Source of the DNA: Roseomonas sp.
GTDB lineage: Bacteria > Pseudomonadota > Alphaproteobacteria > Acetobacterales > Acetobacteraceae
Assembly: GCA_035556695.1 (NCBI GenBank)
Contig: DATMFR010000060.1
Span: 84-64,083, forward strand
Direction: 5' to 3'
Length of the DNA stretch: 64,000 nucleotides
A program made the position numbers and the translations under genes. Below, piece by piece: positions 1,113 through 61,346 of the stretch. Each line of letters starts with the position of its first letter. Within the stretch, counting starts at the first letter, position 1. The notes under the pieces are model-generated. The model was not told where the DNA came from. It made no database searches and worked only from the letters and a program-made list of their open reading frames with translations.

Positions 1113-1352
1113 GGCAAAGGCCTCGCGTTCAGGCCTTCTGGCCGATGGACAAAAATAGTCTAATTTTTATTAATTTAATAATCAATCGTAAATTTTGATA
1201 CCAACGCGAAAAATGAGGCACGCTGAAGGGCGCTGAAATGGTGCAGGGCGGCTAACTTCCCCCCAGCAGCGCGGACCTCTCTTCATGCTGGAATCAACGC
1301 CCTTCCTGTTCCGCTTCCTCGCCGCTCCTCTCCGTCAAGGAGGCGCTGTGCG

Positions 1353-2057
1353 ATGAGCAAAGCCCAGACTCCCCGCTTCATTGCTCCCCATTTTGTCGAG
1401 ATCGAGGGCAGCTCGGATGTTCCCGGTCCGGTGCGCAGGGCCTGCGCCTTCACCACAGCCGCACCGGGCTGGCCGCGTGATGCAAGCGGCGCAACGCATC
1501 ACCATTTCTGTGTGCTGTTTTCTGAAACCGGGCGCTGGCATGAGACGGGCGCAGTCCAGTGGCGCACCGAGAGTCGCGCCCTCTCCTCCGGTGCCCTGCC
1601 CCGCATTGCTATCGGGCGGGCCCCCGACCTGATGCGTGGCATCGTGGCGGCGCTGGGCGCGGCTCATACACCGTTGCACCCGCGGGATGATGCAACGCTG
1701 CCGGCTGCCGTAGTGCTCTGCATCGCGCCAGCCTTTGTCGCCATGATACGCGAGAGGGGCTTGCCTGATGTCTGGGTCTGCAGTCACCTGAATGCGGCGG
1801 GGCCGGTCTCGGCGGAGCAGCCCTGGAGCCATCTGCAGACCGCCTTTATCCGGGCTTGGCCGGGTGGCAACGGTCCGGCTTTCCGGTGCGAGCTCGAGAC
1901 ATTGCCCTTTTCCGCGGTCATGTCAGGCACGGCGGGCGCCGGATCGGCAGAGCGCGAAACCACCTTCTGGTCGGCAGAAAGTCTGGAGGAGGCGATGCGC
2001 GGTTGCCTCGCCCGCATCTTTGCGCCGCGTGCAGCGGCAGTGAGGGGCAAGCTATAG
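1353..2057 (+). CDS. hypothetical protein
   Basis: 234-aa ORF with AGGAGG RBS; protein-like composition; no family recognised. Confidence 0.55.
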   Translation: MSKAQTPRFIAPHFVEIEGSSDVPGPVRRACAFTTAAPGWPRDASGATHHHFCVLFSETGRWHETGAVQWRTESRALSSGALPRIAIGRAPDLMRGIVAALGAAHTPLHPRDDATLPAAVVLCIAPAFVAMIRERGLPDVWVCSHLNAAGPVSAEQPWSHLQTAFIRAWPGGNGPAFRCELETLPFSAVMSGTAGAGSAERETTFWSAESLEEAMRGCLARIFAPRAAAVRGKL

Positions 2058-2102
2058 GAAATTAATCATAATCCGCTTATCTTTGCGAAACTTCCTGACT
2101 TT

Positions 2103-2840
2103 ATGGATGCACTGGATGTGCACATCCATGGATGTTCAGGAGGTGTTTTGCCCTTTCCCGCCTGTGCGGGGCTTCTGGCCCGCGGACTGGTTCCTGTTCT
2201 ACTGCTCTGGCTTGGCAACAGCCAGGCACGAGCTTCCCCCGAGAATGACTGCCTGCAGGCCACCTTGCTGACTGAGCGACAGGCAGGCCTGCCCCGTGGC
2301 CTGCTGCTGGGCATCGCCCTGGTCGAGAGCGGGCATGACGGGCGGCCACATGCGGCCGCGCTGCGGGGCCGGGATGGCAGCAGCCACTGGGGCAGCGAGG
2401 CCTGGCGTCAGGTCCGCCGGGGCGGCCTGAAGCATGCGCATCTCGGCTGTATGCAGCTTTCCGTCCTCTGGCATGGCGACCAGTTCCCAGACCAAGCCGC
2501 CATGCTCGATCCAGCGCGCAACGTCGCCTATGCGGCGGCCTACTTGCAGAAATTGCGTGGCCGCAAAGGATCGTGGCGCAAGGCGGTGTTGCACTACCAC
2601 GGCGGCAAGACGGCTGCATCGGCGGCCTATTTGTGCCGCGTCCATGCAGCACTGGTGGCGCTTGAGGCCCCGGCCGCCCCGCTGCTCCGGCGCCGCCGCT
2701 GCGCCGAGCTGCCAGTGGTGGATGGTGCGCTGCGCCTGCGGTTCCGGATGAGCCTCTCCGGTGCGGAGGCCGGGCGCCATCGTTCCGGCACGCCGCGCAC
2801 CGGAGAAGTGGAGGCTTTACGGCGCGTTCCTAAGCCATAA
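2103..2840 (+). CDS. lytic transglycosylase (SLT domain)
   Basis: LLLGIALVESG (catalytic Glu), LGCMQL, MLDPARNVAYAAAYL, WRKAVLHYH motifs; start uncertain. Confidence 0.8.
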   Translation: MDALDVHIHGCSGGVLPFPACAGLLARGLVPVLLLWLGNSQARASPENDCLQATLLTERQAGLPRGLLLGIALVESGHDGRPHAAALRGRDGSSHWGSEAWRQVRRGGLKHAHLGCMQLSVLWHGDQFPDQAAMLDPARNVAYAAAYLQKLRGRKGSWRKAVLHYHGGKTAASAAYLCRVHAALVALEAPAAPLLRRRRCAELPVVDGALRLRFRMSLSGAEAGRHRSGTPRTGEVEALRRVPKP

Positions 2841-2841
2841 A

Positions 2842-2873
2842 GTCAACTGTCAACTAATAAAGTTGACGTTGAC
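2842..2873. promoter_or_regulatory. inverted-repeat operator upstream of parA
   Basis: GTCAAC-T-GTCAACT-AATAA-AGTTGAC-GTTGAC: two GTCAAC units per arm; includes TTGAC -35-like sequences. Confidence 0.55.
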
Positions 2874-2900
2874 GGAAATGACTGAAGGCGGCAGCTTGTT

Positions 2901-2926
2901 CCTGTGTTCTGACGTCAGAACACAGG
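2901..2926. other. perfect palindrome, candidate parS copy 1
   Basis: CCTGTGTTCTGACGTCAGAACACAGG (26 bp) just upstream of parA. Confidence 0.6.
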
Positions 2927-2947
2927 GGGATCACGGGGGTGAGCCAC

Positions 2948-3970: not shown

Positions 3971-3973
3971 GCC

Positions 3974-4810: not shown

Positions 4811-4820
4811 CGTCAGAAGT
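4803..4820. other. perfect palindrome, candidate parS copy 2
   Basis: ACTTCTGACGTCAGAAGT overlapping the parB stop codon. Confidence 0.6.
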
Positions 4821-4922
4821 TCCGAGGTCCCAACCTGGGGCCGAAGGGAACACTGCCCCCCTTGGAAACCCTATCGGGATGGCCACGGCCACCCCGAACT
4901 GCGCGGCAAGGACGGGGGATCG

Positions 4923-4942
4923 AAGTTCTGACGTCAGAACTT
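4923..4942. other. perfect palindrome, candidate parS copy 3
   Basis: AAGTTCTGACGTCAGAACTT, 120 bp after copy 2. Confidence 0.6.
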
Positions 4943-6552: not shown

Positions 6553-6726
6553 CGTTCCGGCCTCCTGCCGGGATAAAGGTTCCTGGTCGCTGCGCCAGAT
6601 CAGGGGGTACTGCCCGCCTCGAACGCTGCCCGCTTGCTGGCAGCGCCGCCTCGGGAAACCGCCAGGGAGATGCAGGCGAACCAAGCCTAGCCTTCTGCCA
6701 GGTTATGCGAAATTCGGCATGAATAA

Positions 6727-6736
6727 TGCGAAAAAT
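6727..6736 (+). promoter_or_regulatory. TGCGAAAAAT motif upstream of epimerase
   Basis: exact copy, with variant TGCGAAAT at 6706 (21 bp earlier). Confidence 0.5.
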
Positions 6737-16067: not shown

Positions 16068-16850
16068 TCAGCGCACGTTGTTCGCGGTCTGCAGCATCTG
16101 GTCGGTCGCCTCGATGACCTTCGAGTTCATTTCATAGGCCCGCTGCGCCGCGATCAGCTGCGTGATCTCCTGCACCACGTTGACGTTGGACGCCTCCAGG
16201 TACCCCTGTCGGATTTTCGCAAAACCGGGATCGGAGGGCAGGCCGGTGGTCGGCTGGCCGGAGGCGTCGGTCTCCAGGAACTTGTTGCCGCCGGTCGCCT
16301 CCAGGCCCGCTTCGTTCGGGAACATGTACAGCTCCAGCCGGCCGACATTCTGCTGCTGGCCATTGGCGTCGGTGACCAGAACCTCGCCGGCCTGGTTCAC
16401 CGTCACATCCTTGGCGTCGGCGGGTACGGTGATGGCGGGATTGACCGGATAGCCCTCGGTGGTGACGAGCTGGCCCTCGGGGGAGAGCTTGAAGCTGCCG
16501 TCGCGGGTATAGGCGACGGTACCGTCCGGCAGGGTGAGGCCGAAATAGCCGCGGCCCTCAAGCGCCAGGTCATAGCGGTTGCCGGTGTCGGTCAGCGAGC
16601 CCTGCAGGGTGATGCGGTTCACCGCCGAGTTGCGCACGCCAAGTCCCACCTGCGTGCCCACCGGCAGCACCGTTCCTGCCTCGGAGGAGGAGGAGCCGAC
16701 GCGTTCGGAGGACTGGTAGATCAGGTCCTGGAACTCCGCCTTGCGCCGGGTGAAGGCGGTGGTGGAGACGTTGGCGATGTTGTTGGCGATGACCTCGACA
16801 TTGGTCTGCTGGGCCTGCATGCCGGTGGCCGCGATGCTCATGGCGCGCAT
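16068..16850 (-). CDS. flgG: distal rod protein FlgG
   Basis: AATGMQAQQTNVEVIANNIANVST, FQDLIYQ, YTRDGSF, GYLEASNVNVVQEITQLIAAQRAYEMNSK. Confidence 0.95.
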   Translation of the reverse strand: MRAMSIAATGMQAQQTNVEVIANNIANVSTTAFTRRKAEFQDLIYQSSERVGSSSSEAGTVLPVGTQVGLGVRNSAVNRITLQGSLTDTGNRYDLALEGRGYFGLTLPDGTVAYTRDGSFKLSPEGQLVTTEGYPVNPAITVPADAKDVTVNQAGEVLVTDANGQQQNVGRLELYMFPNEAGLEATGGNKFLETDASGQPTTGLPSDPGFAKIRQGYLEASNVNVVQEITQLIAAQRAYEMNSKVIEATDQMLQTANNVR

Positions 16851-16906: not shown

Positions 16907-17659
16907 TCAGTTCGAGCGCCCCAGGGTCTCTATCATTTTTCGCACACGATCGTCGTCATCGGCAACGATCCGCTGCATGCTTTCATAGGCCCGCTGGATC
17001 AGCGTCAGGTTGGAGAGCTCCTGCACCGGCTGCACGGTGGAGGCCTCCAGCGCGCCCTGATGCAGGCGCACTCCCGGCGCATTGGCCGGCACCGGCTGCA
17101 CGTCGGCGGTCGGGATCTCCAGCAGACCGTCGCCGCCTTTGCGGATGCCGCGAGGATCGCCGCCGCGGAACAGGCCCAGGCGCCCGGCCTGCTCGATCCG
17201 TCCGTCCACGGTGGCCAGGATGGTGCCGTCGGTGCGGATCTCGACCTTGCTGACCTGCTCCGGCATCAGGATGGGCGCGCCGCCCTCGTCGAGCACCGGG
17301 CGGCCGCCGCTGTTCACGAGGGTATTGTCCGGGGCGATATGCATCCGGCCGTCGCGCGTGTAGCCGCGGCCGCCGCCCTGGCGTTCCACCGCCAGATAGG
17401 CATCGCCCTCGATCGCCACGTCGAGCGGGTTGCCGGTCGCCGCGATCGTGCCGGCGCGGGTGTCGAGATAGGTGGCGCGGTCCTGCACGAAGGCGACCTC
17501 CCGCCCCGGCACCTCCAGGCGGCTGACATGGGTCTGGAACAGGGTGCGGTCGCCGCGGAATCCGGTGGTGTTGGCATTGGCCAGGTTGTTGGCGGTGACG
17601 TCGAGCTGCTGGCGCAGCGCCATCTGTCCGGAGAGGCTGACGATGCTGGGGCTGTCCAT
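16907..17659 (-). CDS. flgF: proximal rod protein FlgF
   Basis: LDVTANNLANANTTGF, TGNPLDVAIEG, YTRDG, QGALEASTV; start MDSPSIVSL at 17659. Confidence 0.9.
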   Translation of the reverse strand: MDSPSIVSLSGQMALRQQLDVTANNLANANTTGFRGDRTLFQTHVSRLEVPGREVAFVQDRATYLDTRAGTIAATGNPLDVAIEGDAYLAVERQGGGRGYTRDGRMHIAPDNTLVNSGGRPVLDEGGAPILMPEQVSKVEIRTDGTILATVDGRIEQAGRLGLFRGGDPRGIRKGGDGLLEIPTADVQPVPANAPGVRLHQGALEASTVQPVQELSNLTLIQRAYESMQRIVADDDDRVRKMIETLGRSN

Positions 17660-21106: not shown

Positions 21107-21197
21107 CGACTGGGACAGCCCCGCAGGTTGCGACGGTCGGCGCTGAAGCTCACCGATGCGTTGCTCTTATCATTTCGCATCCTGTCGTGCTATGAGC

Positions 21198-21207
21198 ATT
21201 TTTCGCA
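21198..21207 (-). promoter_or_regulatory. TGCGAAAAAT motif upstream of motA
   Basis: exact copy on minus strand; variant at 21172-21179. Confidence 0.55.
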
Positions 21208-22280: not shown

Positions 22281-22589
22281 TCAGGCCTGGGCCGCCACGG
22301 CCATCATCGGCGGGCTGGCCAGCCGCCCCGCCCGGCGCCGGCGCCCCTCGCGCCGCACATCGGCGCCATGCACATGCCCCGCCGCGTAGCAATGACGCAT
22401 CGCGGCCAGCAGGACGTCGGGAACCGGCATTTCCCGCAACCCCGGCAGGTCGGCGGTGCCGGCGATGTCACGGTGCAGTCCCTGCAGGCCATCCCGCCGG
22501 CCCAGCGCCACGGCGCGCCCTAGCAACGCTTCGGCAAGGCCTTCCCAGTCCAGGGCGGGGGAGAAAAGCGCGAGTCCATTGTCGGGCAT
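22281..22589 (-). CDS. small hypothetical protein
   Basis: 102-aa helical ORF MPDNGLALFSPALDWEG...; preceded by a co-oriented TGCGAAAAAT at 22685-22694. Confidence 0.5.
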   Translation of the reverse strand: MPDNGLALFSPALDWEGLAEALLGRAVALGRRDGLQGLHRDIAGTADLPGLREMPVPDVLLAAMRHCYAAGHVHGADVRREGRRRRAGRLASPPMMAVAAQA

Positions 22590-22684: not shown

Positions 22685-22694
22685 ATTTTTCGCA
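22685..22694 (-). promoter_or_regulatory. TGCGAAAAAT motif
   Basis: exact copy; variant TGCGGAAAC at 22662-22670. Confidence 0.5.
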
Positions 22695-23297: not shown

Positions 23298-23308
23298 TGC
23301 GAAAAATT
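23298..23308 (+). promoter_or_regulatory. TGCGAAAAAT motif
   Basis: exact copy 65 bp upstream of the 23363 ORF; variant TGCGAAG at 23320. Confidence 0.5.
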
Positions 23309-23362: not shown

Positions 23363-24034
23363 ATGCCGCAGCATCTTTCTCTCATCCGGCCGCTTCCGGC
23401 GGCCACCCTGCTGGGGATGGCGGGGCTGGGTGCCGGCCTGGGCGCCGGACCCGTGCTTCCCGCGCTCGGCTGGCACAGCCTCGCGGCACTGGCCGCCGGT
23501 GCCGCCGCCGCTGTCTGGCTGGGCCGGCGCGACCGCGCGATGCGGCGCCGCTTCGCCGCGCTGCGGCTGCAGGTGGAGCCGTTGCCGGACGGCCCACAGA
23601 CCCTGGCCGGCGTGGTCCGCTTCGCCAGCACGGCTCCGCTGGCCTGGTGCGCCCGGCAGGGGGAATGGTGCCTGGACCTGGCGCGCACGGAGGCGAGTGA
23701 CCTTCCCTGGCGGCTGGACCTGCGCCGCGCCAGCCCGCCGGACGCACCGATGCCTCTGGCGCAGGCGGCCACGCTGGATGCCGTGCTCACCCTCTCGCGG
23801 CGCCTTTTCACGGGACAGGGCGCTGCCCAGGCCAGCGATCCTGCTTTGCGGGAGGCGGCTGGCCTGCTGGATTGCGACCTGGAATTCGTGCTGCCCGCGC
23901 CGCAGGGGCGGATCACGGCCCTGGCCGAGGGCGGCTATGCCCTGCACGATGCCAGCGGCAGCCGCGCCCTCTGTGCCGTGGCCGCGGATACGCTGCTGGG
24001 CGAGACCAGCCGGATCCGCTCCGGCGAGGCCTGA
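23363..24034 (+). CDS. hypothetical membrane-anchored protein
   Basis: GGAGA RBS; N-terminal hydrophobic segments then soluble domain; no family recognised. Confidence 0.55.
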   Translation: MPQHLSLIRPLPAATLLGMAGLGAGLGAGPVLPALGWHSLAALAAGAAAAVWLGRRDRAMRRRFAALRLQVEPLPDGPQTLAGVVRFASTAPLAWCARQGEWCLDLARTEASDLPWRLDLRRASPPDAPMPLAQAATLDAVLTLSRRLFTGQGAAQASDPALREAAGLLDCDLEFVLPAPQGRITALAEGGYALHDASGSRALCAVAADTLLGETSRIRSGEA

Positions 24035-27020: not shown

Positions 27021-27255
27021 GCAGCGGATCTCCCGGCGATTGCGATTTTTCGCGCGACAAGCGGAGTGGGCGAAGGTATAAACCGACGCGTCTTCGCATG
27101 CCATGCTAAAAACATCCGTTCCGGGATGTTCGCACGGGATGGCAGGCGAGTGGGAACGGGGTCTGGGTGTCACGCCCGGCTGCCCTGGCGCGTCGGCCAA
27201 GGATGCGCCGGAAGGCCGGGTGGGGCGCGCGCCAGCATGAGGCGATAGAAGGTCG

Positions 27256-28854
27256 ATGCAGCAAGTTCGGACCCTGGGGCCTGGTTTCGATCTGGGGGGG
27301 CTGGGCGCCACGCTCAGGCGGCTCGGCCCTGCGAAAATCGGTGCTCTGGTGGCGGTGGGACTGGCGGCGCTGATCGCCGTGATCCTGGTGGCGCGCTCCG
27401 CCAATGCGCCGGATGGCCTGCTCTATGCCGGGCTGGAGCCCGCCGAGGCCGGGCGGATCGCCACCCGGCTGGAGGAGTTGAAGGTCCCTGTCCAGGCGCG
27501 CGGCGACGGCGCCATCTTCGTGCCGGCCGAGCAGGTGGCGCGGCTGCGCATGCAGCTTGCCGCCGAGGGCCTGCCGCGCCAGGGCGGCGCCGGCTACGAG
27601 CTGCTCGACCAGGCCAGCCCGATGCAGATGACCTCCTTCATGCAGCGCGTGCAGCGGTTGCGGGCGTTGGAGGGCGAGCTGGCGCGCACCATCATCACCA
27701 TGCAGGGGGTACGCTCCGCGCGGGTGCACATCGTGCTGCCGGAGCGCGAGAGTTTTTCGCGCGACGCGCCGCCGCCGACCGCCTCGATCACCGTCACCAC
27801 CCAGGCCGGGCAGCGGCTCGGCGCCGCGCAGGCGGCGGCGATCCGGCTGCTGGTGGCCGGCGCCGTGCCGCGCTTGCGGCAGGAAGACGTGTCGGTGGTC
27901 GACCCAAACGGCATCGTGCTGGCGGCCGATGGCGGGCTGGGTGCCGCCGCTGGTCGTATCGGGGAAATTCGCATTGCCCAGGAGCAGGCGCTCCAGAAGG
28001 CGGTGCTCGATCTGCTGGAGCCGATCCTCGGCCGCGGCAAGGTGCGCGCGGTGGCCTCGATCGACGTCGAGGGCGCCCGCACCGTGGCGCGCGAGGAGAC
28101 CTATGACCCCCTCGGCCAGGTCGAGCGCGGCCGGCAGACCCAGACCGAGCAGGAGAACAGCGACGACGGCCGCGGCCAGGCGCCGGTGACGGTCGGGCAG
28201 AACCTGCCGAACCAGCAGGTCGGCAACAACGCCACACGCAGCACCTCCTCCAGCCAGCGCCGCAACGAGACGGTGAATTTCGAGATCTCCTCGAAGGTCG
28301 AGGAGACGGTGCGCGAGCCCGGTGCGGTGAAGCGCGTCAGCGTCGCCGTGGTGGTGGACGAGGCCGCCGATGCCGCGGGAAAGACGGTGCCGCGCCCGAA
28401 GGAAGAGCTGGACCGCCTGGCGGCGCTGGTGCGCTCCGCGGTTGGCTTCAACGAGAAGCGCGGCGACATCGTGACGGTCGAGACGCTGCGCTTCCTGCCG
28501 GAAGAGGGGCTCGGCACGCTGGCCTCGGCCGATGCCGACGGGGTGCTGCTGAGCGGCCGGCAGATCGCGATGATCGCGGGCGGGCTGGTGCTGGCCCTGG
28601 TCGCCGCCAGCCTGCTGTTCCGCCGCCGCCAGCGCCGCCTGGTGGCCGAGGCCGCCGCGGCTGCGACTGCCGCGGCCGCCGCCGCCGCCGCTGCGGCCCA
28701 GGCGGACAGCATGGACGACGCCATCGCCACGGTCGGGCAGGACATCCAGATCCGGCTGTCCTCCCTTTCCGCCTTGCAGGAGATCATCGACCAGCGGCCG
28801 GATGAGGCCCTGGCGGTGGTCCGCTCCTGGATCGAGGAAGGGACGCCGGCATGA
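27256..28854 (+). CDS. fliF: MS-ring protein FliF
   Basis: [79 protein letters not shown]. Confidence 0.95.
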
Positions 28855-32852: not shown

Positions 32853-32862
32853 TGCGAAAAAC
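32853..32862 (+). promoter_or_regulatory. TGCGAAAAAC motif upstream of motB
   Basis: 58 bp upstream of motB ATG; overlaps a TGGCAC-N5-ATGC sigma54-like arrangement. Confidence 0.5.
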
Positions 32863-35415: not shown

Positions 35416-35426
35416 GCCCGCCGGGA

Positions 35427-35453
35427 CGCGGCGGTGGCCTGTCCACCGCCGCG
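35427..35453 (+). terminator. hairpin after flgE
   Basis: CGCGGCGGTGG-CCTGT-CCACCGCCGCG followed by CTTT, abutting the TGCGAAAAAT motif at 35457. Confidence 0.45.
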
Positions 35454-35456
35454 CTT

Positions 35457-35466
35457 TGCGAAAAAT
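35457..35466 (+). promoter_or_regulatory. TGCGAAAAAT motif upstream of flgK
   Basis: exact copy 47 bp before flgK ATG. Confidence 0.55.
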
Positions 35467-42323: not shown

Positions 42324-42333
42324 TGCGAAAAAC
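42324..42333 (+). promoter_or_regulatory. TGCGAAAAAC motif upstream of fliJ
   Basis: 86 bp before fliJ; an opposite-strand copy at 42401-42410 points at the protease. Confidence 0.5.
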
Positions 42334-42409
42334 GCATAATTTCTATCATGGCGTTTTGTCGAGGGCCAGAGCTGCCTTGCGGCTGCGCGATCTGCAAAGG
42401 AATTTTCGC

Positions 42410-42814
42410 ATGCGTAGCCTTCCTCTCCTGATCCGGTTGGCGCGGCAGCGCGCCGATGAGCGGCGGCTGGTGCTGGCTGTGGCCGAGCAGGCGCGGTTGG
42501 CAGCGGAGGCGGCGCTGACGGAACAGGAGGCGCGGATGGCCACCGAGCGGGCGCAGGCGGCTGGCGATCCCGAGGCCATGGCCCGCTGGGGAGAATGGTC
42601 ACGCGCCGCCGCGCGGCAGCGGCGGCGCCTACTAGAGGGGTTGGGGGCGCGACAGGAGCGCGAGGAGGCGATCCGCGCGGCGCTGGCGGAGGACTTCGCC
42701 GCCCTCAAGCGGCTGGAGCTTGCCCTGCAGGCGCAGCAGCGGAACGCGGCGCGCGAGAGGGAGCGCAAGGCGGAGAAGGCGGCAGAGGATACAGAGTTGC
42801 GGCGGCTCCGCTGA
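42410..42814 (+). CDS. fliJ: FliJ-like export protein
   Basis: MRSL..LIRLARQRADERR..L, coiled coil, F..LKRLE, D at C-terminus; size 134 aa typical. Confidence 0.75.
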   Translation: MRSLPLLIRLARQRADERRLVLAVAEQARLAAEAALTEQEARMATERAQAAGDPEAMARWGEWSRAAARQRRRLLEGLGARQEREEAIRAALAEDFAALKRLELALQAQQRNAARERERKAEKAAEDTELRRLR

Positions 42815-42833: not shown

Positions 42834-44579
42834 TCAGGCCGGCAGGCTGAGCCGCTCCAGGTCCGGCTTTTCCTTGAACCGGCTCCAGGCGCTCAGCAGC
42901 TCGCGCAGCTGCTCCTCCTGGCTGGTGCGCTCGCGCCGCAGGACCTGCATGCGGCGGCGCAGTTCCAGGATCAGGTGGCCGCGCGGCAGGTCGGCGCCGC
43001 TCTCGAAGCGCTCCAGGAAGATGCGGCCCAGCTCGGGATCGTCGCGCTCGATGCAGTAGGCGGCATAGGTCAGCACCGAGCCGCGGCCAAACTCGATCAT
43101 CTTGCGGCCGAAGGTGCGCAGCTCCAGCAGGCGCGGGTGCTGCTCGACGATGCGCATCACCTCCGCCGGCGTCGGCTTGGCGTTGCGCGTCCCTGCCGGC
43201 TTCAGCTCGCGCTTCCACAGCAGCACGGCGGCGGCGGCGATCAGCGGCTTGTCGCCGAAGCCGTCGAAGGCGGCGCCGAGCTGCGGCCCCTTCTTGGCGT
43301 GGATGTCGTAGGTGTCGTAGGCCTCCTCGGGGAGGTTGCGCATGACCGGCACCTCGATCGCCTCGCCCGCCTGGATCACGGCGGAGAGCCGGTGCTGGCC
43401 GTTCAGCAGCCGCCCCGAGCGGCTGAAGCAGATCGGCTGCGCGTTCATCATCCAGTTGCCGGCGCGGATGTCGCGGGCGATGGCGTCCACATGCGCGGCG
43501 ACGATTTTGCGGTTGCGTGTGTTGTGGCCGAGATAGGCCTCCGCCAGCTGCGGCGAGATAGTCTCGATCACCAGCGGAAAAACGTTCTCCTCCTGCACCA
43601 GGCGCTCGACCGCCTCGCGCAGCTTGCGCGCGGTCTCCTCGGTATCATCCGCATGGCCAGGATCGTTCAGCCCGGGGTAGCCCTGAAGCGCCGGGAACTC
43701 CTCGCCCTTGGTCGGGTTGGAGGTCTTGTCGATCCAGGTATAGGAGCGCAGATGCTCGCCGGTGAAGGTGGCGTTCAGCGCCTTGATACAGAGGGCGAAG
43801 AGCATTACCGGCTTGAGCCGTGTCGCCGGATCGCCGCGGGTGATGTCGATCAGGTCGCGGATGCGCGCGCCCGGCTCCATCGGCGAGTACTTCTCCGGCC
43901 AGGCGACGGCGTCGAGGAAGCGGCGCGTCGCCGTCTTGTCCACCCGGAATCCCATGAACAGCAGCGGCGTGCGCACCGCCTCGGAAAGCACGGTCGCCTC
44001 GCTTTCCAATGACATCTTCACCGCCTGCTCCAGGTCGGGATTGGCGCGCAGCACGCGGTCCATGCGCGACCAGGAGGCGGTGCCGGCGCCGCGCAGCATC
44101 TTGCCGTCGTCGTAGCGGATCAGCTTCACCAGCGCGGATTGCAGCGCATGCGCATGCGGCACGCCGCGTGCCTCCAGCACGCCGGCGAAGGAGCGGCGGC
44201 GCTGCTGGTCGATGGTGTGCAGCACGTCGTCGGGGATGTTCTGCGCCAGCACGGTGAGGAAGGGAACGCCGGCCTTGATACAGGCGCGCAGCCGCTGCAC
44301 GCCGTCGAGCAGCACGCCGGTGCGCGAGAGGATGAGGGGCATGCCGTTGAGGATCCAGCGGCCCTCCCGCATCGCCTCGGCATAGGCGTTGATGGCGTTG
44401 GGGTTCTCGGCGGCACTCGGGCGCTTGCGCTGCAGCAGCTCGGTCGCGCCTTCCGGCGTGACCAGCTCGACCGAGAAGGCGGGCCCATCGGGATTCTGGC
44501 CCTGGACCTGCACGATCCTGCCGCTCGGCGTGCGCGCTGCGGTCTTGCTCTTGCGTGCCGCCCCGTTCGCCCGTGCCAT
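42834..44579 (-). CDS. protein with two tandem ParB/sulfiredoxin-like (DGQHR-like) domains
   Basis: domain 1 VTPEGATELL..YAEAMREGRWILNG.P..LLDGVQRL; domain 2 ISPQLAEAYL.HNTRNRK..IARDI.AGNW.MN..PI..LLNGQHRL. Confidence 0.75.
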   Translation of the reverse strand: MARANGAARKSKTAARTPSGRIVQVQGQNPDGPAFSVELVTPEGATELLQRKRPSAAENPNAINAYAEAMREGRWILNGMPLILSRTGVLLDGVQRLRACIKAGVPFLTVLAQNIPDDVLHTIDQQRRRSFAGVLEARGVPHAHALQSALVKLIRYDDGKMLRGAGTASWSRMDRVLRANPDLEQAVKMSLESEATVLSEAVRTPLLFMGFRVDKTATRRFLDAVAWPEKYSPMEPGARIRDLIDITRGDPATRLKPVMLFALCIKALNATFTGEHLRSYTWIDKTSNPTKGEEFPALQGYPGLNDPGHADDTEETARKLREAVERLVQEENVFPLVIETISPQLAEAYLGHNTRNRKIVAAHVDAIARDIRAGNWMMNAQPICFSRSGRLLNGQHRLSAVIQAGEAIEVPVMRNLPEEAYDTYDIHAKKGPQLGAAFDGFGDKPLIAAAAVLLWKRELKPAGTRNAKPTPAEVMRIVEQHPRLLELRTFGRKMIEFGRGSVLTYAAYCIERDDPELGRIFLERFESGADLPRGHLILELRRRMQVLRRERTSQEEQLRELLSAWSRFKEKPDLERLSLPA

Positions 44580-45019
44580 CGGTTTCTCTCTCCGTCCCGC
44601 TACGCTGTGCTGGTCAGACCCCTGGCCGGGGCCGGGCAGCGAATAATCGCCTGGGTGATCGCCGGCGGTTTCGCCCGTTTAGAGTTTTTTCGCTCTTTAA
44701 GCTAGATGCAAAAATCTCCAACAGGAAAAAGATTTTCTCTGGATGGCTTTTCGCAGAAGAATGCTGCGGCGAAGCCAAGTTCAACAAGATCAAAGGGTAA
44801 CCCGTTCGGATAAGATCTGACCTTAGGGATTTCTTCACCATGTTCTCAAACCTCGGAATAGAAGCTTGTCCTGCATGATGCTAAATACGATGGGCTTTCT
44901 GATGAAAACGCATTTCGTGCAGTAAGGCAGGCCGGGCGCGCCTCCCTCCGAGGGCGCCGACAGCCTGTGCGCGCCATGCACCTGATCCCTCGTCCCCGCA
45001 GGAAGGAGAATCCCTCCCC

Positions 45020-45346: not shown

Positions 45347-45577
45347 CGGCCTCGCCGCATCGCGTCCCTTTTCGGGGGCGCGGTGCCCTTGCGCCCTGCT
45401 CCCAGGGCGCCGGCTTTGCTGTGCATGGCGTTCATGGTCATGCGAAATACCACAATTTAGTTGGTTCGCGCGCCTGCCCCTGGGGCTCGGCTGCATTTTG
45501 CGGTGCCGATCGCACAAGACCCTTGCCTTGACCCGCCGGGATCGGTCTTCTGCTCACACTAATGTGAGGCTGGCGAT

Positions 45578-46489
45578 ATGCTGACGCGCGTGCGTCCGGG
45601 ACAGGATGGAAGCTGGCAGGCCGTGCTGGGCCAGGCCGCCATGGGCTTCGGCCGTGACGGCTTTCCCGACCGTGCCGCCGCGGAGGACTGGGCGGCGCGC
45701 GCCGGTCTGGCCGCCCGCGAGTGTACCATCCGCATCGGCAGCAAGCGTTTCCTGGGCACCGCCGCCGAAGCGCTCCGCCGCTGGGCGATCGACCAGGGTA
45801 CCCTGCCCCGTGCCGAGGGCGGCACCCAGGTGGCGCCGCTGCAGCGCCTGGCACCACTGCTGGAGGACTCCGACTGCGCCCTTCCTCTGGCCGTGTTGTC
45901 GCCCGAGGATCTCTCGGCCCTGCGCCGCCGACGGCTGGTTGCCCTGCAGGACACCGCCGCCATGCTGGCTGAGCAGGCCGCCATGGCGGCGGCGCTGGAG
46001 CAGTTCCGCGACTTCCACCTGCCGGCGCTGGACGATCCTTTCGGCGAGATTGCGCCGGATGGCTTGTGCGTGCTGGACGAGCCGAGCTGCGCCCAGGCCA
46101 TCGGTTGGGCCGGACAAATGAGCGAGGCCTGGGGGCGCTTCGTCGCCCTGTTGCTGCTCACGGGCGCGCCCGTTCCCACGCTGCTTGGCGCCTGCTGCGG
46201 GCATGCGGATGCACGGAGCGGCCGGCTGCATCTGCCGGGCGGCCCGGTGCTGACGCCGCCACCTGACCTGTTCCCCGCCCCCGCCGCGGCACCCGAAGCG
46301 CCATTGCTGCCTGGTCTGCAGGCGGCGGGAGTGGTCGCTGAGGGAATGCGGGAGATCGGCAGGCGCCTGCAGCGTCCGGGGCTGCGACCGGAGGCGCTGC
46401 AGCTGACGGCGCTGGTGGCCGCCCTGAACCAGGGACAGCACCTGGACGAGATCCTGATCCTTGCGGGTGCCCTGAAGAGGGCACGGTAG
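45578..46489 (+). CDS. tyrosine-recombinase-fold protein lacking catalytic residues
   Basis: integrase-like WQA..FPDRAAAEDWA, AEALRRW, LSPEDLSALRRRRL; catalytic boxes degenerate: LLTGAP (for TGMR), GLRPEALQL (for GLRFHDLRH), LAGA (for SGH); ends before the Tyr. Confidence 0.6.
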   Translation: MLTRVRPGQDGSWQAVLGQAAMGFGRDGFPDRAAAEDWAARAGLAARECTIRIGSKRFLGTAAEALRRWAIDQGTLPRAEGGTQVAPLQRLAPLLEDSDCALPLAVLSPEDLSALRRRRLVALQDTAAMLAEQAAMAAALEQFRDFHLPALDDPFGEIAPDGLCVLDEPSCAQAIGWAGQMSEAWGRFVALLLLTGAPVPTLLGACCGHADARSGRLHLPGGPVLTPPPDLFPAPAAAPEAPLLPGLQAAGVVAEGMREIGRRLQRPGLRPEALQLTALVAALNQGQHLDEILILAGALKRAR

Positions 46490-46513: not shown

Positions 46514-46546
46514 TGCGAAAAAGTTTGCGGAAAGAGCGCGAAAAAA
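46514..46546 (+). promoter_or_regulatory. three tandem TGCGAAAA-like motifs upstream of bactofilin
   Basis: TGCGAAAAAG (46514), TGCGGAAA (46526), CGCGAAAAAA (46537); about one helical turn apart. Confidence 0.55.
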
Positions 46547-46604: not shown

Positions 46605-47381
46605 ATGAGCTTCTTCGGAAAGCCAAGCGGTGGAGAGCCGCGCATCACTTACGAGCGCATCGACCTCGCGGCCGAACCGCCCGGTGCGCCGGTGGAGCCC
46701 CTGCCTCTAGCCGGCGCACGCAGCCTGGCGGACCGGCTGGAGCCGCGCATCGATCGTGCGAAAACAAATCATGATGCGCCTGCCGAAGCGGGCATGATGC
46801 TGGTGTCTGCCGACAGCGAGGTGGAAGGCGAGCTGCGCAGCCGCGGCGCGGTGCGCGTCGAGGGCGTGCTGCGGGGCAGCCTGCATGCACCCCTGCTGCT
46901 GCTGGAACCGGGTGGGCTGGTGGAGGGCACGGTGCATGTGGAGCGCGCGCGCCTCTGCGGCACCCTGCGCGGCACTCTGATCGCCCGCGAGGTGGAAGTG
47001 GTCCGCACCGCTGCGCTGGACGCCGAACTGGTCTATGACGAGATCAGCATCGAGCGCGGCGCACGCGTGCGCGGCCTGCACCGCCAGCGCGACCCCGAGC
47101 CGGCGGCCGAAGTGGCGCCGGAGGCCCTGGTTCTGCCGGAGGCGGAGGCGGAGGCCGAGGCGGACAGGCCGGATCCGGCGCTGCTGGCCGCTGCGGCGGC
47201 TAGCACGGCGGCGCTGGTGGCAGAGGCGGAGGCAGCCCTTCAGGAGCTCGCGCAGGCCACCCAGGCGGCCGCGGGCGCGGTGACCGAGCTGGCTCAGGAC
47301 GGCATCCAGGATCTGGTCGATCTGGAGGCCGAGCTGCGCGAGACGCCGGAGAAGATGTTGCGCGACCCGCTCGCCGCCTGA
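46605..47381 (+). CDS. bactofilin (polymer-forming cytoskeletal protein)
   Basis: VSADSEVEGEL...VRVEGVLRGSL...GLVEGTV...LCGTLRGTL...AELVYDEISIERGARVRG beta-helix repeats; acidic helical tail. Confidence 0.88.
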   Translation: MSFFGKPSGGEPRITYERIDLAAEPPGAPVEPLPLAGARSLADRLEPRIDRAKTNHDAPAEAGMMLVSADSEVEGELRSRGAVRVEGVLRGSLHAPLLLLEPGGLVEGTVHVERARLCGTLRGTLIAREVEVVRTAALDAELVYDEISIERGARVRGLHRQRDPEPAAEVAPEALVLPEAEAEAEADRPDPALLAAAAASTAALVAEAEAALQELAQATQAAAGAVTELAQDGIQDLVDLEAELRETPEKMLRDPLAA

Positions 47382-47464: not shown

Positions 47465-47884
47465 TCAGCGGTACAGCGGCGTCAGGCCGGGATAGGGTAT
47501 TTCCGCCAGCCCACGTTCCCGCAGTAGCCGGTTGGCGGCACGCGCCACTTCCTTCGGCCCAGCCTCGAAGCCATCCAGCACATAGTAGCCGTTGCGCAGC
47601 GGCCGCACGCGGTGGCCCAACAGCCCGCAGGCATACTGCAGCGGCGTCATCTCCTCATCCGCCTCCTTGAAGCCGCTGATGAACGGCGACTGCTCGTCAT
47701 CCTTGCTGACGCGGCTCAACACACGCTTGGCCCGGCGCTGCGCATACCAGGGCTCGATCCCGAAGATGCGCGCCAGGCTGTTCACCTCCTCCCCGGCCAG
47801 CAGGCGGCGATCGAACTCGCCGCGCAACTCGACCGCCAGGGCACGGCGGCGGATCTGGTGGCGCCGCTTCGGCCTGGATTCCAT
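47465..47884 (-). CDS. small protein with putative N-terminal HTH
   Basis: RLLAGEEVNSLARIFGIEPWYAQRRAKR resembles an HTH; C-terminal YYVLDG..P..V..AANR.L...G...IPYP. Confidence 0.55.
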   Translation of the reverse strand: MESRPKRRHQIRRRALAVELRGEFDRRLLAGEEVNSLARIFGIEPWYAQRRAKRVLSRVSKDDEQSPFISGFKEADEEMTPLQYACGLLGHRVRPLRNGYYVLDGFEAGPKEVARAANRLLRERGLAEIPYPGLTPLYR

Positions 47885-48008
47885 CGACAGAGCTTCATCC
47901 TCGCCCACGGCGTCGGTTCCTCATTCCCGCATTTCGCGGCTGGGGTCTGCTCCTTCTGGAGACGCAAGGAGCCATCGCTTCTCGAGGCCGGGTTGATGCA
48001 CGATGTTA

Positions 48009-48019
48009 TGCGAAAATTT
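48009..48019 (+). promoter_or_regulatory. TGCGAAAATTT motif upstream of flgJ-flgN
   Basis: 80 bp before flgJ ATG. Confidence 0.55.
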
Positions 48020-48717: not shown

Positions 48718-48768
48718 GAGTCACAGGCAACCGGCAATGACATCGGCGCAGTGAGGCACCGATTGGCT

Positions 48769-48780
48769 TGCGAAAAATTT
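48769..48780 (+). promoter_or_regulatory. TGCGAAAAATTT motif upstream of flagellin
   Basis: 122 bp before the flagellin ATG. Confidence 0.6.
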
Positions 48781-48890
48781 TGCCGCGACGCTAGAAATGC
48801 TGGCCGCAGTCGGACCGACCCTGGGCCGTGCGCAGCGAGATCCGCGTCAGAAGGCGCTCCCCAGAACCGGAACCCTTGAAGGGCGCAATT

Positions 48891-52469: not shown

Positions 52470-52551
52470 CGCGGCAGCTTCAGTCCGCGCCAGAAACGGA
52501 TCGAGCCAGAATCCCATCCCCCCCGATGCGAAAGGCAAGGAACCCCCGCCG

Positions 52552-54370: not shown

Positions 54371-55723
54371 TCAGCCCTCCTGCAGGATCTGCTGAAGCCG
54401 GGCGAAGGAGTCCTGCGCCGCGCTGCGCTCATCCAGCCCCTGGTTCAGGAAGGCCTCCAGCGCCGGCTGCAGCCGGATCGCCGTGTCCACCTGCGGGTCG
54501 CTGCCGCTGCGATAGGCCCCAAGCCGGATCATTTCCGCCATGTCGGCATAGCTGGCGAGGTGCCGCCGCGCCCCGGCGAGCAAGGCATTCTGCCCGGCAT
54601 CATGGCAGCGCGGCAGGGCGCGGCTGACCGAGCGCAGGATGTCGATCGCCGGCCAGCGGCCGCGCTCGCCGATGCGCCGGTCGAGCACGATATGGCCGTC
54701 CAGGATGCCGCGCACCGCGTCGGCGATCGGCTCGTCATGATCGTCGCCATCGACCAGCACGGTGAAGATGGCGGTGATGTCGCCCTCCCCCTCCGGCCCG
54801 GGCCCGGCGCGCTCCAGCAGCGCCGGCAGCTCGGTGAAGACGGAAGGGGTGTAGGAGCGAGCGGTGGCCGGCTCGCCGGCGGCCAGGCCGACCTCGCGCT
54901 GCGCATGCGCCAGGCGGGTGACGGAATCCAGCAGCAGGAAGACCTGCTTGCCCTCGGCGCGGAAATGCTCGGCGACGGCGAGCGTCGCCTGCGCCGCGCG
55001 GCGGCGGGCCAGGGCCGGCTGGTCGGAGGTGGAGACCACCACCACGGTGCGGCGCCGCCCTTCCTCGCCAAGCGTGTGGTCGAGGAACTCGCGCACCTCG
55101 CGCCCGCGCTCGCCGATCAGCCCGACGACGATGACGTCGGCCTCCACGCCGCGCGCCAGCATGCCCATCAGCGTGGACTTGCCGACGCCGGAGGCGGCGA
55201 AGATGCCCAGGCGTTGGCCGCGGCAGATCGGGGTGAAGACGTCGAGCGCGCGCAGGCCGGTTTCCAGCTTGGCGCCGACCAGGCGGCGGCGCATCGCGTC
55301 CGGCGCCGGCTGGCGCAGCGGCACGCCGCGCTGCCCCTGCGGCAGCGGTCCCCGGTCGTCGAGCGGCTGGCCCGTGCTGTCGATCACCCGCCCCATCCAG
55401 GCCTCGCTCGGGTAGAGCATCAGCGGCGGCTCCAGCCAGACCCGGCTGCCGGGACTCAGCCCCTCGATGCCGCCTTCCGGCATGCCCAGCGCGGCCTCCG
55501 CGGTGAAGGCGACGAACTCGCCGAGAACCGGCCGGGCCAGGTCCTGCCGCTGCACCCGCATACGGTCGCCGATCGAGACGCCCTCGCCCAGCCCGGTGAC
55601 CGAGAGCGCCGCGCCACGCACGCTGGCCAGAGTGCCGAAGCGTTGCCAGCGCGGCAGACGGCCGAGTTGCGCGGCCAGGTCGCTGGGCGGCGCGGCAATG
55701 GAAGAGGGGTGGGGAACAGTCAT
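54371..55723 (-). CDS. fliI: flagellar export ATPase FliI
   Basis: GQRLGIFAASGVGKS, LIGERGREV, LLDSVTR.A.AQRE.GLA.GEP, LLERAG, ILDGHIVL, PAIDIL.SVSR. Confidence 0.96.
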   Translation of the reverse strand: MTVPHPSSIAAPPSDLAAQLGRLPRWQRFGTLASVRGAALSVTGLGEGVSIGDRMRVQRQDLARPVLGEFVAFTAEAALGMPEGGIEGLSPGSRVWLEPPLMLYPSEAWMGRVIDSTGQPLDDRGPLPQGQRGVPLRQPAPDAMRRRLVGAKLETGLRALDVFTPICRGQRLGIFAASGVGKSTLMGMLARGVEADVIVVGLIGERGREVREFLDHTLGEEGRRRTVVVVSTSDQPALARRRAAQATLAVAEHFRAEGKQVFLLLDSVTRLAHAQREVGLAAGEPATARSYTPSVFTELPALLERAGPGPEGEGDITAIFTVLVDGDDHDEPIADAVRGILDGHIVLDRRIGERGRWPAIDILRSVSRALPRCHDAGQNALLAGARRHLASYADMAEMIRLGAYRSGSDPQVDTAIRLQPALEAFLNQGLDERSAAQDSFARLQQILQEG

Positions 55724-55830
55724 GCGAAAAATTTGCCTTGTGACGGCAGAACGGCGTTCCGTCCCGGCTTTCAGGGCTGCACGGTGCGGGCATTCTCCGC
55801 CAGGGCATTGGAAAATGCTATGCGAAAAAT
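55723..55830 (+). promoter_or_regulatory. two TGCGAAAAAT motifs in the fliI/flgB divergent region
   Basis: exact copies at 55723 (overlapping the fliI start codon) and 55821, both oriented toward flgB. Confidence 0.55.
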
Positions 55831-55894
55831 ATCGACATGCGGCGCGGGCGCGGCTATTGCTGCGGGAGCACCGCCAGAGGGGCCCCGAAATCCC

Positions 55895-56739: not shown

Positions 56740-56743
56740 CCGC

Positions 56744-57037: not shown

Positions 57038-57064
57038 GCCGCCCAGCGCGCCGGAGAATCCGCG

Positions 57065-57328: not shown

Positions 57329-57331
57329 CCG

Positions 57332-59389: not shown

Positions 59390-59399
59390 GCCGGCGGCG

Positions 59400-60161
59400 A
59401 TGCAGGCGGCGCTGAACCTCGACGGCTGGCTCTCGGCCGAGCTGTACCGGCTGTTCCTGGTGTTCTGCCGGGTTTCGGCGGCGCTGTTGCTGCTGCCGGG
59501 CGTGGGCGAGACGCAGGTGCCGGCGCGCATCCGCATCCTGGCCGGGCTGGTGGTGGCCTTCTGCATCGCCCCCCTGGCCGGCCCGGCGCTGCCCACGCCC
59601 CCGGTCTGGGTGGTGGCCGTCGCGGTTGGTACCGAGGTGGCCGCCGGGGCGCTGCTCGGCACCCTGGCGCGGCTGCTGCTCTCGGCGGTGCAGACGGCAG
59701 GCCAGTTGATCGGCCAGAGCATGGGCATCAGCAACGCCTTCATCTTCGGCATCGGCATGGACAATTCGGCGGTGATCGGCACCGCCATCTACGCCGCCTG
59801 CCTGGCCGCGCTGTTCGCCGTGGACGGCCACCATCCCGGCCTGCGCGCGCTGGTGGAGAGCTACACGCTGATCCCGCTCGGCGGCCCGCTGCCCACCGCC
59901 GCCGCGGCGCGCGTGACCACCGAGGGCCTGACCACCGCCTTCCGCCTGGCCATGCAACTCGCCATGCCCTTCCTGTTCCTGGCCATGCTGTTCAACGTGG
60001 TGCTGGCCGGGATCAACCGGGCCATGCCGGCCATGTCGGTCTTCATGATCGGTGCCCCCGCCTTGCTGATGGCCGGGCTTTCCCTGCTGGGCGTCACGGC
60101 GCCGGGCCTGGTGAGCGAAGTGCTGGGCGCCTATGGCGCCGTCTTCGTGCTGCCGCGCTGA
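59400..60161 (+). CDS. fliR: FliR
   Basis: LVFCRVSA...LPG.GE..VP.R.R, AG.LI..SMG, N...A.INR.MP. Confidence 0.92.
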   Translation: MQAALNLDGWLSAELYRLFLVFCRVSAALLLLPGVGETQVPARIRILAGLVVAFCIAPLAGPALPTPPVWVVAVAVGTEVAAGALLGTLARLLLSAVQTAGQLIGQSMGISNAFIFGIGMDNSAVIGTAIYAACLAALFAVDGHHPGLRALVESYTLIPLGGPLPTAAAARVTTEGLTTAFRLAMQLAMPFLFLAMLFNVVLAGINRAMPAMSVFMIGAPALLMAGLSLLGVTAPGLVSEVLGAYGAVFVLPR

Positions 60162-60170
60162 GGCCGCGCC

Positions 60171-61253
60171 ATGGCGGAGGAAAGCGGCCAGGAAAAAACC
60201 CTCGACGCCTCGCCGCGCAAGCTGCAGGAGGCGCGCGCGCGCGGCGACGTGCCGGTCTCGCGCGAGGGCTCCAGCTTCGGCGTCTATGCCGCGCTGCTGC
60301 TGGCGCTCGGCCTGGCCGGAGGGCTGGTCGCGCAGCGCTTTGCCGAGATCCTGCTGCCGCTGATCGAGCAGCCGGACGCCTTCCTGGAACTCACCGAGGA
60401 AGGCTACCGCCAGGCCGGCGCGGCCTTCCTCGGGGCGCTGGCGCTGGCGCTGCTGCCGGTCTTCGGGCTGCTGCTGGCCGGCAGTCTGCTGCCGCATCTG
60501 CTGCAGAACACCCTGGTGGTGGCGGGCGAGCGGCTGGAGCCGAAGCTCTCCCACCTCTCGCCGATGGCCGGCCTGAAGCGCGTCTTCGGCCTCAAGGCGC
60601 TGTTCGAGTTCGGCAAGGGCCTGCTGAAGGCGCTGGCCGTGGCCGGCGCCTGCTGGGTGGTGGGCAAGCCGCTCTATGACCGCAGTGGCCAGTTGGTGGG
60701 GCTGGACCCGGTGGTCTTCCCCGCCCTGGCGCATGAGCTGCTGATCAAGGTCCTCTTCGCCGTCACGCTGGTCGCGGCGGTGGTGGCGGTGATCGACATC
60801 AGCTTCCAGCGCTTCGAGTACAATCGCCGCCAGCGCATGACCCTGCAGGAGATGCGGGAGGAGATGCGCAGCACCGAGGGCGACCCGCATGTAAAGGCGG
60901 CGCTGCGCAAGAAGCGGCGGCAGATGTCGCAGCGGCGGATGATGGCCGAGGTGCCGAAGGCGACCGTGGTGATCACCAACCCCACCCATTTCGCCGTCGC
61001 CCTGCGCTACGAGCGTGGCCAGGACGAGGCGCCGGTCTGCGTCGCCAAGGGGGTGGACAAGATGGCGCTGCGGATCCGCGAAATTGCCCGGGAGGCCGGG
61101 GTGGCGGTCATGGAGGACCGCCCCCTTGCCCGCGCCCTGCACGCCTCGGTGGAGGTGGGGGAGGTCATCCCGCCGGCGCATTTCGAGGCGGTGGCCAAGA
61201 TCATCGGCATCGTCTGGGCGCAGAAGCGGCAGCGGGCGGGTGGCCGGACCTGA
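60171..61253 (+). CDS. flhB: FlhB
   Basis: EKT..ASPRKL..AR.RGDV, EMRSTEGDP.VK, VITNPTHFAVAL (autocleavage NPTH), AKG.D..A..IRE.A. Confidence 0.96.
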   Translation: MAEESGQEKTLDASPRKLQEARARGDVPVSREGSSFGVYAALLLALGLAGGLVAQRFAEILLPLIEQPDAFLELTEEGYRQAGAAFLGALALALLPVFGLLLAGSLLPHLLQNTLVVAGERLEPKLSHLSPMAGLKRVFGLKALFEFGKGLLKALAVAGACWVVGKPLYDRSGQLVGLDPVVFPALAHELLIKVLFAVTLVAAVVAVIDISFQRFEYNRRQRMTLQEMREEMRSTEGDPHVKAALRKKRRQMSQRRMMAEVPKATVVITNPTHFAVALRYERGQDEAPVCVAKGVDKMALRIREIAREAGVAVMEDRPLARALHASVEVGEVIPPAHFEAVAKIIGIVWAQKRQRAGGRT

Positions 61254-61346
61254 CGAGGGGTGCGTCGCAAAATTTGTACGATTTTCTTGACGCGTGACAT
61301 CGCGCTTGCGAAACAAGGCCCCTCCGGAACAGCGAGGCCCGCCCCC

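Follow-up and report, generated by a model that had tools for sequence, protein, structure and literature searches.

A conserved, oriented promoter box specific to one mobile type of flagellar gene cluster in Roseomonas

The replicon and its recurrent box

The window analysed here, a 64-kb stretch of Roseomonas sp. DNA (70% G+C), carries a flagellar gene cluster in which one short word, TGCGAAAA, recurs upstream of operon after operon. It is part of contig C60 of a 5.34-Mb genome in 61 contigs, and C60, to judge from a 141-bp terminal overlap, is a circular replicon of ~72.15 kb made up of the whole window (1-64000) and 8 kb beyond it. The replicon encodes a complete flagellar gene set including FlaF, FlbT and DUF1217 (Pfam scans), together with a RepA-like gene, parAB, minCDE, cheY and a cheZ-like gene. 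The hierarchies that control flagellar genes are textbook examples of regulation, and an earlier reading of the window from its letters alone (the sequence-only reading) had proposed that the word marks an undescribed flagellar regulon. That proposal is borne out: TGCGAAAA is the core of an oriented, conserved, promoter-proximal cis element, and this box is specific to one mobile type of flagellar cluster.

All 18 exact copies that had been counted by eye were recovered on the two strands of the window (expectation ~0.85; a number attained in 0 of 100 shuffles), and the one-mismatch variants noted at 1205, 2084, 27054, 27104, 45441, 52527 and 61307 are all present. Across the genome, 24 of the 43 exact copies lie on C60, which makes up 1.35% of the sequence. 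The C60 copies are extended to (G)TTA/CT-TGCGAAAA-AT, an extension that the scattered copies elsewhere in the genome lack, and a position weight matrix applied at a threshold of at least 22 bits gave 17 genome hits, 15 of them on C60.

Most copies had been described as intergenic and facing the next gene. This holds for 14 of the 18, which are situated between genes, 47-242 nt 5' of the next start codon; intergenic DNA makes up 10.6% of the replicon yet contains ~73% of the exact and near-exact sites. Only sites flanked by co-directional genes allow orientation to be tested; 12 of these 13 run in the direction of transcription (p=0.003). The divergent regions between the gene for a ParB-like protein and orf45020, and between fliL and fliF, each hold divergent box pairs, one box per gene. 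The other four exact copies proved to lie inside genes (16221, 27330, 46757 and 16944, the last of which had been listed as a site facing flgG). Three of these read xxT-GCG-AAA-A, that is, Ala-Lys codons, and are coding coincidences: the copy in flgG (16214..16221, minus strand, codons Phe-Ala-Lys), that in fliF (27330-27337) and that at 46757-46764. A copy within minC, past the window end, is of the same kind, and the copy at 16944 is not kept in relatives. The direct tandems that had been reported are real at spacings of 21 bp (6706/6727), 23 bp (46514/46537), 18 bp (65353/65371) and 28 bp (21179/21207), but the reported 11-12 bp spacings involve degenerate copies only.

Conservation of the box in related clusters

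Orthologous cluster DNA (25-60 kb) was taken from five genus genomes. The four 60-kb regions contain 14-18 exact copies of TGCGAAAA each, and the 25-kb region from G020 contains 5. In alignments of orthologous upstream regions from six genus genomes, identity to the window is 92% in the motif columns and 50% in all remaining non-coding upstream columns. Each gene also keeps its own spacing between box and start codon across orthologues: 54-58 nt at motB, 58-61 nt at cheY, 70-76 nt at orf66868, 72-78 and 170-177 nt at flgB, 89-101 nt at motA (with a second site 28 bp downstream) and 120-123 nt at flagellin.

More distant clusters carry the box as well. These are L001, a metagenome-assembled genome whose FlhA is 69% identical, L111, a plasmid of Rhodovastum, and the metagenomic contigs L112 and L113; their ParB-like proteins are 51-55% identical to that encoded in the window. 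The box is found at the orthologous flagellin, flgB (two or three copies) and flgJ-like promoters of these clusters, and at flgB the positions ~75 and ~170 nt from the start codon hold in L112 and L113 too. Motif frequency genome-wide and in orthologous promoters, which the sequence-only reading had suggested as a check, is that of a box concentrated on the cluster, oriented and conserved in relatives.

The flagellin promoters of G020 and G009 are without the box. There CTTGTGGC stands in place of CTTGCGAAAA, with CTTGTGG aligned exactly at the box position and the -10 block retained, and in G009 a box-like ATGCTAAAAAC lies at the -10 position. From these alignments the loss looks like a lineage-specific rewiring of one promoter.

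Confinement to one mobile cluster type

FlhA orthologues 85-97% identical to that of the window were found in 19 of 22 other genus genomes, and the distribution of the 10-mer TGCGAAAAAT follows the cluster. Its copies number zero genome-wide in G014 and G019, which have no cluster. Where the cluster is present, every copy falls on it or on its contig: 14/14 on C60 in G000, 12/12 on the FlhA contig in G003 and G017, and, for the chromosomal cluster of G013, 8/8 inside 44 kb of a 3.78-Mb contig. G020 contains both the cluster and a second flagellar system (FlhA 51% identical); all 10 copies are on the contig of the cluster's FlhA, and none was found on the contig of the second system. This second system (FlhA ~51% identical) also occurs in G009, G015 and G016, and is the only one in G005. 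The box is specific to one type of mobile flagellar cluster and is not a feature of flagella in the genus generally. That the cluster moves between replicons follows from its location in complete genomes, on plasmids in R. marmotae, P. cervicalis and Rhodovastum atsumiense, set against its chromosomal position in G013.

It is scarcely credible that the word is a functionless compositional or mobile-repeat artefact. Such a view could draw on the exact copies that are Ala-Lys coding coincidences, and on 9-mer counts in other Acetobacteraceae that exceed a reversed-word control 2- to 5-fold with no clustering, although with a GC-dependent background and an imperfect reversed-word control these family-wide counts are uninformative for co-occurrence. 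It is contradicted by the conservation of orthologous boxes against 50% flank identity, by the exclusivity to the cluster and by the orientation bias. Nor is the box a repeat family, because the flanks of different copies are unrelated to each other.

The set of genes behind the box is wider than the flagellar scope first proposed for it. Flagellar operons are indeed included, but so are cheY and cheZ-like genes, minCDE, a bactofilin gene, the ParB-like gene and several ORFs of unknown function past the window end.

Promoter geometry and mode of action

With the -35 and -10 hexamers assigned from sequence conservation only, three recurrent architectures can be recognised in motif-anchored alignments. 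In the first, type a, the box itself forms the inferred -35 in the arrangement cTTGCGA-N17/18-TAnnnn, seen at flagellin (48769..48776, plus strand; cTTGCGA-N17/18-TAGAAA), minC, cheY and ORF 48061 (box at 48009..48016, plus strand, 5' of the FlgN-like ORF 48061/48349; ATGCGA-N18-TAACAT, kept in G020, G012, G001 and G009). In type b the box ends 2-4 nt 5' of a separate conserved -35-like hexamer (TnGACA, TTGTAG or TTGAAA) and a -10-like TA follows ~17 nt further on, which puts the box at about -46 to -37; the members are flgB (also in L112/L113), motA site 1, orf66868, the site at 22694 and a site at the contig junction (72075 in window numbering; TTGATG-N17-TATGAT). In type c, comprising motB, fliJ and fliL, the box occupies the spacer, preceded by a conserved CTTGAA, CTCGAC or CTTGTC. 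Taken together, the boxes are located at about -50 to -15 of the inferred promoters, and enrichment of TA steps is confined to the DNA 3' of the box, from +7 to +24. The hexamer assignments are supported because all predicted leaders then measure ~25-30 nt. At a few sites the box is just 12-35 nt from the start codon, namely at flgK and orf45020 (G013/G001) and at the third flgB site of L112/L113.

Two identities had been suggested for the box in the sequence-only reading, a promoter element of a dedicated sigma factor and the binding site of an activator. As a core-promoter element it would be read by the RNA polymerase holoenzyme, either as a special -35 (cTTGCGA plus A-tract) or as an extended -10-like element (TRTG-n-GAAAAAT), with a dedicated or unrecognised sigma-like factor. 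The strict directionality and the cTTGCGA-N17/18-TAnnnn arrangement kept at flagellin, minC, cheY and ORF 48061 are features of such an element; the sites 12-35 nt from start codons would suit a -10 role, and the core xxCGAxAA resembles the sigma-28 -10 element GCCGATAA. Against this, the box stands ~11 bp 5' of a -35-like hexamer at flgB, motA and orf66868 but 3' of one at motB and fliJ, no single spacing to a second element holds across promoters, and neither column counts nor anchored alignments revealed a conserved partner 15-20 nt 5' of it. A whole-genome search for FliA/WhiG (TIGR02479) gave three sub-threshold hits only, in long RpoD/RpoH-like frames, and Pfam scans found no sigma-domain ORF on C60. 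So variable a position speaks against a fixed element belonging to a dedicated sigma factor, which we regard as improbable, and favours a protein-binding site.

An action in RNA is more improbable by far. The box would in that case be a 5'-UTR or intercistronic element recognised by a post-transcriptional regulator (FlbT/FlaF-like, for example) or cut by an RNase, and its invariable sense orientation, the many sites between co-directional genes, the variable distance to promoter-like hexamers and the placement of some copies right before ribosome-binding sites would all agree with this. However, a box that occupies the -35, as at flagellin, minC and cheY, or stands 5' of the conserved -35/-10 blocks, as at flgB, would not be transcribed; the conserved flagellin leader begins well 3' of it, and the divergent pairs a few nt apart in divergent regions are typical of promoters. 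The alignment of the box with the flagellin -35, its position upstream of TnGACA-N17-TAT blocks at flgB and the purely downstream enrichment of TA steps place it at the level of DNA rather than RNA.

A transcription factor site is what we favour, and the part of the earlier suggestion that specified an activator is less secure, since the variable positions suit a repressor no less well. The box would then be the operator of a cluster-specific repressor that blocks RNA polymerase when bound at about -50 to -10 and whose release de-represses the motility operons. Occlusion tolerates a box upstream of the -35, on it or in the spacer of a reasonable sigma-70-like promoter, which most activation mechanisms do not, and several of the promoters have fair core elements of their own (TCGACA-N17-TATTGC at flgB and the contig-junction hexamers at 72075). 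A simple operator, on the other hand, needs no fixed orientation, yet 12 of the 13 testable sites are co-oriented, and at four promoters the box itself provides the TTG of the -35. We consider a repressor unlikely, if less so than a sigma element.

Individual sites along the replicon

The two motA sites, 28 bp apart (21172..21207, minus strand), consist of TGCGAAAA at 21200-21207 and the variant TGCGAAAT at 21172-21179; both sites and their spacing are kept in G013, G012 and G001, and site 1 is followed by the -35-like TTTGTAGCA. A copy at 22687..22694 (minus strand) precedes TTGATA-N17-CAGTAT and faces the ORF at 22281-22589, with orthologous sites in the same three genomes, in which variants of the copy at 23298..23305 (plus strand), 5' of the ORF at 23363-24034, are also kept. 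The divergent fliL-fliF region (27047..27111) has CGCGAAAA at 27047-27054 on the minus strand towards fliL and TGCTAAAA at 27104-27111 on the plus strand towards fliF, and the block CTTGTCGCGCGAAAAATCGC in this region is invariant in four genomes. The motB copy (32853..32860, plus strand) lies directly after the conserved CTTGAA in five genomes, and the fliJ copy (42324..42331, plus strand), also seen in five genomes, occupies the spacer after the conserved CTCGAC.

The flgK copy (35457..35464, plus strand) is immediately 3' of the hairpin that ends flgE, a GC-rich, terminator-like structure at 35420-35456 that abuts the box. Relatives have one-mismatch variants 29-58 nt before the ATG; in G013 and G001 the distance is just 29-35 nt, leaving no room for a conventional downstream -35/-10. 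At flgB (55723..55828, plus strand) the two copies, at 55723 and 55821, are conserved in six genomes, and the proximal one reads TATGCGAAAAAT-N1-2-TCGACA-N17-TATTGC. The bactofilin gene is preceded by a tandem pair (46514..46544, plus strand) of TGCGAAAA at 46514 and CGCGAAAA at 46537, and a similar pair is present in G009.

Upstream of the epimerase/dehydratase gene, TGCGAAAA at 6727..6734 (plus strand) has the variant TGCGAAAT 21 bp further upstream, at 6706; this region is missing from the relatives fetched and fell outside the footprinting. The copy at 42403..42410 (minus strand), which faces a trypsin-like protease gene, is not conserved in relatives. Further variants on the plus strand are TGCGAAAT at 45441..45448, 5' of the ORF at 45578-46489, TGCGAAAG at 52527..52534, 5' of a flaG-like ORF, and TGCGAAAC at 61307..61314, 5' of the second fliL.

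Three other conserved blocks were noted near boxes. A GGCAC lies 9-10 nt 5' of the box at the flagellin (48754-48758) and cheY (~65385) promoters, its spacing to the box being 3-4 nt over the sigma-54 promoter length. At the orf66868 promoter (~66830, past the window end) an (A/G)TGGCAC ~30 nt 3' of the box is invariant in five genomes and occupies the expected place of the -10 without resembling one. Finally, the flagellin leader of ~85 nt (48800-48890, GCGATGACCGCGTCAGAAGGCGCTCCC..AACCGGAACCCTTGAAGGGCGCAA) is near-invariant in six genomes while the DNA just upstream has diverged; it is probably a target of the adjacent translational regulators FlaF/FlbT.

Candidate readers of the box

Among the proteins encoded in the cluster, one of 581 residues (42834..44579, minus strand), here called the ParB-like protein, is the leading, if weak, candidate for the reader. 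It is encoded in every motif-bearing cluster, is 82-86% identical across the genus (about the level of FlhA), and is the sole unannotated cluster ORF also present, at the 51-55% identity given above, in all four distant motif-bearing clusters. It was found in none of 80 other alphaproteobacterial FlhA loci, searched 10 kb either side of FlhA. Its own gene is preceded by conserved boxes (44687..44755, minus strand), AGCGAAAA at 44687-44694 and TGCGAAAA at 44748-44755 (five genomes), the inner copy belonging to a conserved divergent pair, ATTTTTGC-N14-GCGAAAAA. In the AlphaFold model (mean pLDDT 74.6) two modules, each alpha/beta plus helical, follow one another in tandem. In Foldseek searches the best match was the M. 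xanthus ParB-CDP structure 7o0n (probability 0.95, but with a weak E value of 0.056), followed by PadC and SbnI. On inspection of the sequence, the motifs GVQRLRA and GQHRLSA resemble ParB box II (GxxRxxA-like), and some source records label the protein ParB/Sulfiredoxin (Srx).

Tandem-domain homologues of 27-30% identity, annotated as hypothetical, are encoded on Bifidobacterium megaplasmids and on Streptomyces, Arthrobacter and Mesorhizobium plasmids, which are unrelated plasmids, and the ParB-like protein looks like a member of a wider plasmid-associated family. L112 (12154-12954 and 15425-16123) and L113 (15013-15717) encode OmpR-type response regulators, with histidine kinases, a few kb from the ParB-like gene; the Roseomonas cluster is without these.

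A 147-aa HTH-like protein (47465..47908, minus strand) is a weaker candidate, with weak HTH fold matches only. As a universal reader it is weakened by its restriction to Roseomonas-like genera: in L111-L113 none was seen close to the ParB-like gene, and the whole genome holding L001 lacks it.

The account we lean towards, by a modest degree of confidence, is that the TGCGAAAA(A)T box is the predicted asymmetric site, at core promoters, for a dedicated transcription factor carried along by the cluster. The absence of FliA from the genome and of a sigma-domain ORF from C60, together with the varying geometry, argues for such a factor rather than a sigma factor. In this model TGCGAAAA(A)T, often after (G)TTA or CT, would act as a DNA-level cis-regulatory box, set within or beside the sigma-70-type core promoter of nearly every operon in a single mobile flagellar cluster, which occurs in Roseomonas, Pseudoroseomonas, Teichococcus and some other Acetobacteraceae. 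The factor, presumed to be a protein distinct from RNA polymerase and encoded in the cluster, would bind the box and switch the whole set jointly: the flagellar structural genes, motAB, the cheY/cheZ-like genes, minCDE, the bactofilin gene and its own gene. That the 581-aa tandem ParB/Srx-like protein is this reader is a tentative proposal, based on its co-occurrence with the box, the conserved boxes upstream of its own gene and its predicted fold. Somewhat more doubtful is its fullest form, in which the tandem ParB/Srx-fold protein, possibly NTP-dependent like ParB/VirB, would be a master regulator acting through TGCGAAAA at ~20 promoters and making the module autonomous from its host.

Several observations weigh against this account, in one or other of its parts. 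The promoter architectures depend on hexamers assigned by conservation, and the sites 12-35 nt from start codons fit a -35 role as little as they do a classic activator. Searches with the ParB-like protein gave no hit in Pfam at E<=1 and none by profile among PDB sequences, and with the weak fold match its link to the box is circumstantial. Homologues of ~50% identity in G045 and G064, two other genera, are encoded outside flagellar clusters with no local motif enrichment, an apparent 9-mer enrichment in G064 being dispersed background. ParB-family regulators normally bind palindromes, and the box is asymmetric. By analogy with PadC, the nearby bactofilin gene suggests a positioning role for the protein instead, and the regulator may be chromosomal, the genome having 12 OmpR-family genes.

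Comparison with known flagellar signals and regulators

The box corresponds to none of the CtrA, sigma-28 and sigma-54 signals, nor to the FtcR motif as published. For CtrA, TTAA-N7-TTAA has no match in the window even with one mismatch, in agreement with the sequence-only reading, which had seen no CtrA box. A sigma-28 signal was rejected because the genome has no FliA and the bipartite geometry TAAA-N15-GCCGATAA is not found. RpoN is encoded in the genome, but a sigma-54 signal was likewise rejected: GG-N10-GC is matched only with 2 mismatches, the match at motB (32841) is not conserved in relatives, and, while a few copies lie 12 nt after a GG, the spacing fails at flagellin and cheY (GGCAC-N9/10-TGCG). 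Pfam scans of the window ORFs found no Sigma54_activat enhancer-binding protein, and scans of the cluster found no regulator combining Response_reg and Trans_reg_C; the genome has 12 Trans_reg_C genes, none of them on C60. The FtcR motif published from ChIP data is TGTGGGCA, which differs in sequence from the box (PMC9456535). The position of an UP element (an A/T-rich alpha-CTD site at -40 to -60) fits only promoters of the flgB, motA site 1 and orf66868 type, the box being elsewhere on the -35 or in the spacer, and the invariant TGCG is not an UP-element feature. The PGAP annotation of the P. cervicalis cluster includes no transcription factor. A literature search for the sequence word returned primer noise only, and nothing describing the regulation of a flagellar hierarchy in Acetobacteraceae was found in the searchable literature.

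None of the customary switches is seen in this cluster. Sigma-28 is missing from the genome, and the cluster itself lacks sigma-54-type promoters, an enhancer-binding protein, CtrA boxes and a response regulator. What it does have is ~20 promoters sharing a single box that is practically absent from the rest of the 5-Mb genome. It offers a natural case of a large organelle module that seems to bring its own regulatory code along in horizontal transfer. The presence of minCDE and the bactofilin gene in the same regulon hints that motility is coupled with division-site placement and polar organisation. The box opens a testable route to a new flagellar master regulator, and were this to be a ParB/Srx-fold protein it would form a new class beside FlhDC, FleQ/FlrA, CtrA and Rem/FtcR.

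Short asymmetric boxes present in one or several copies at varying promoter positions are familiar from the Spo0A '0A box' (TGTCGAA) and the MarA/SoxS marbox, although the proteins and lineages are unrelated to those here and the likeness is one of analogy only. Comparable settings are those of KorB of RK2, VirB of Shigella and BisD of ICEclc, in each of which a ParB/Srx-fold protein on a mobile element controls many of that element's promoters. BisD is a ParB-domain transcription activator that acts as master activator with the FlhC-like BisC (bioRxiv 10.1101/2019.12.20.884213). The candidate described here differs from all three in being a tandem duplication of the module, and its membership is suggested by a weak fold match only.

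Among alphaproteobacterial flagellar regulators, the OmpR-type proteins Rem of Sinorhizobium and FtcR of Brucella are dedicated regulators of the same gene set (FlaF, FlbT, DUF1217), and some boxes here likewise form direct tandems. The replicon, in contrast, has no response-regulator or winged-helix gene, and its tandem spacings (18, 21, 23 and 28 bp) do not conform to a constant repeat of 10-11 bp. The regulons controlled by CtrA in alphaproteobacteria, such as that of Rhodobacter sphaeroides fla2 (PMC6180460), share part of the organisation seen here: one short box at nearly every flagellar promoter, divergent ones included, lying near or over the -35, with sigma-28 missing and no sigma-54-type promoters or enhancer-binding protein. 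The box of the Roseomonas cluster, however, is a single asymmetric 8-10-mer of unrelated sequence, and it is exclusive to one mobile cluster and missing from the second flagellar system of the same genomes.

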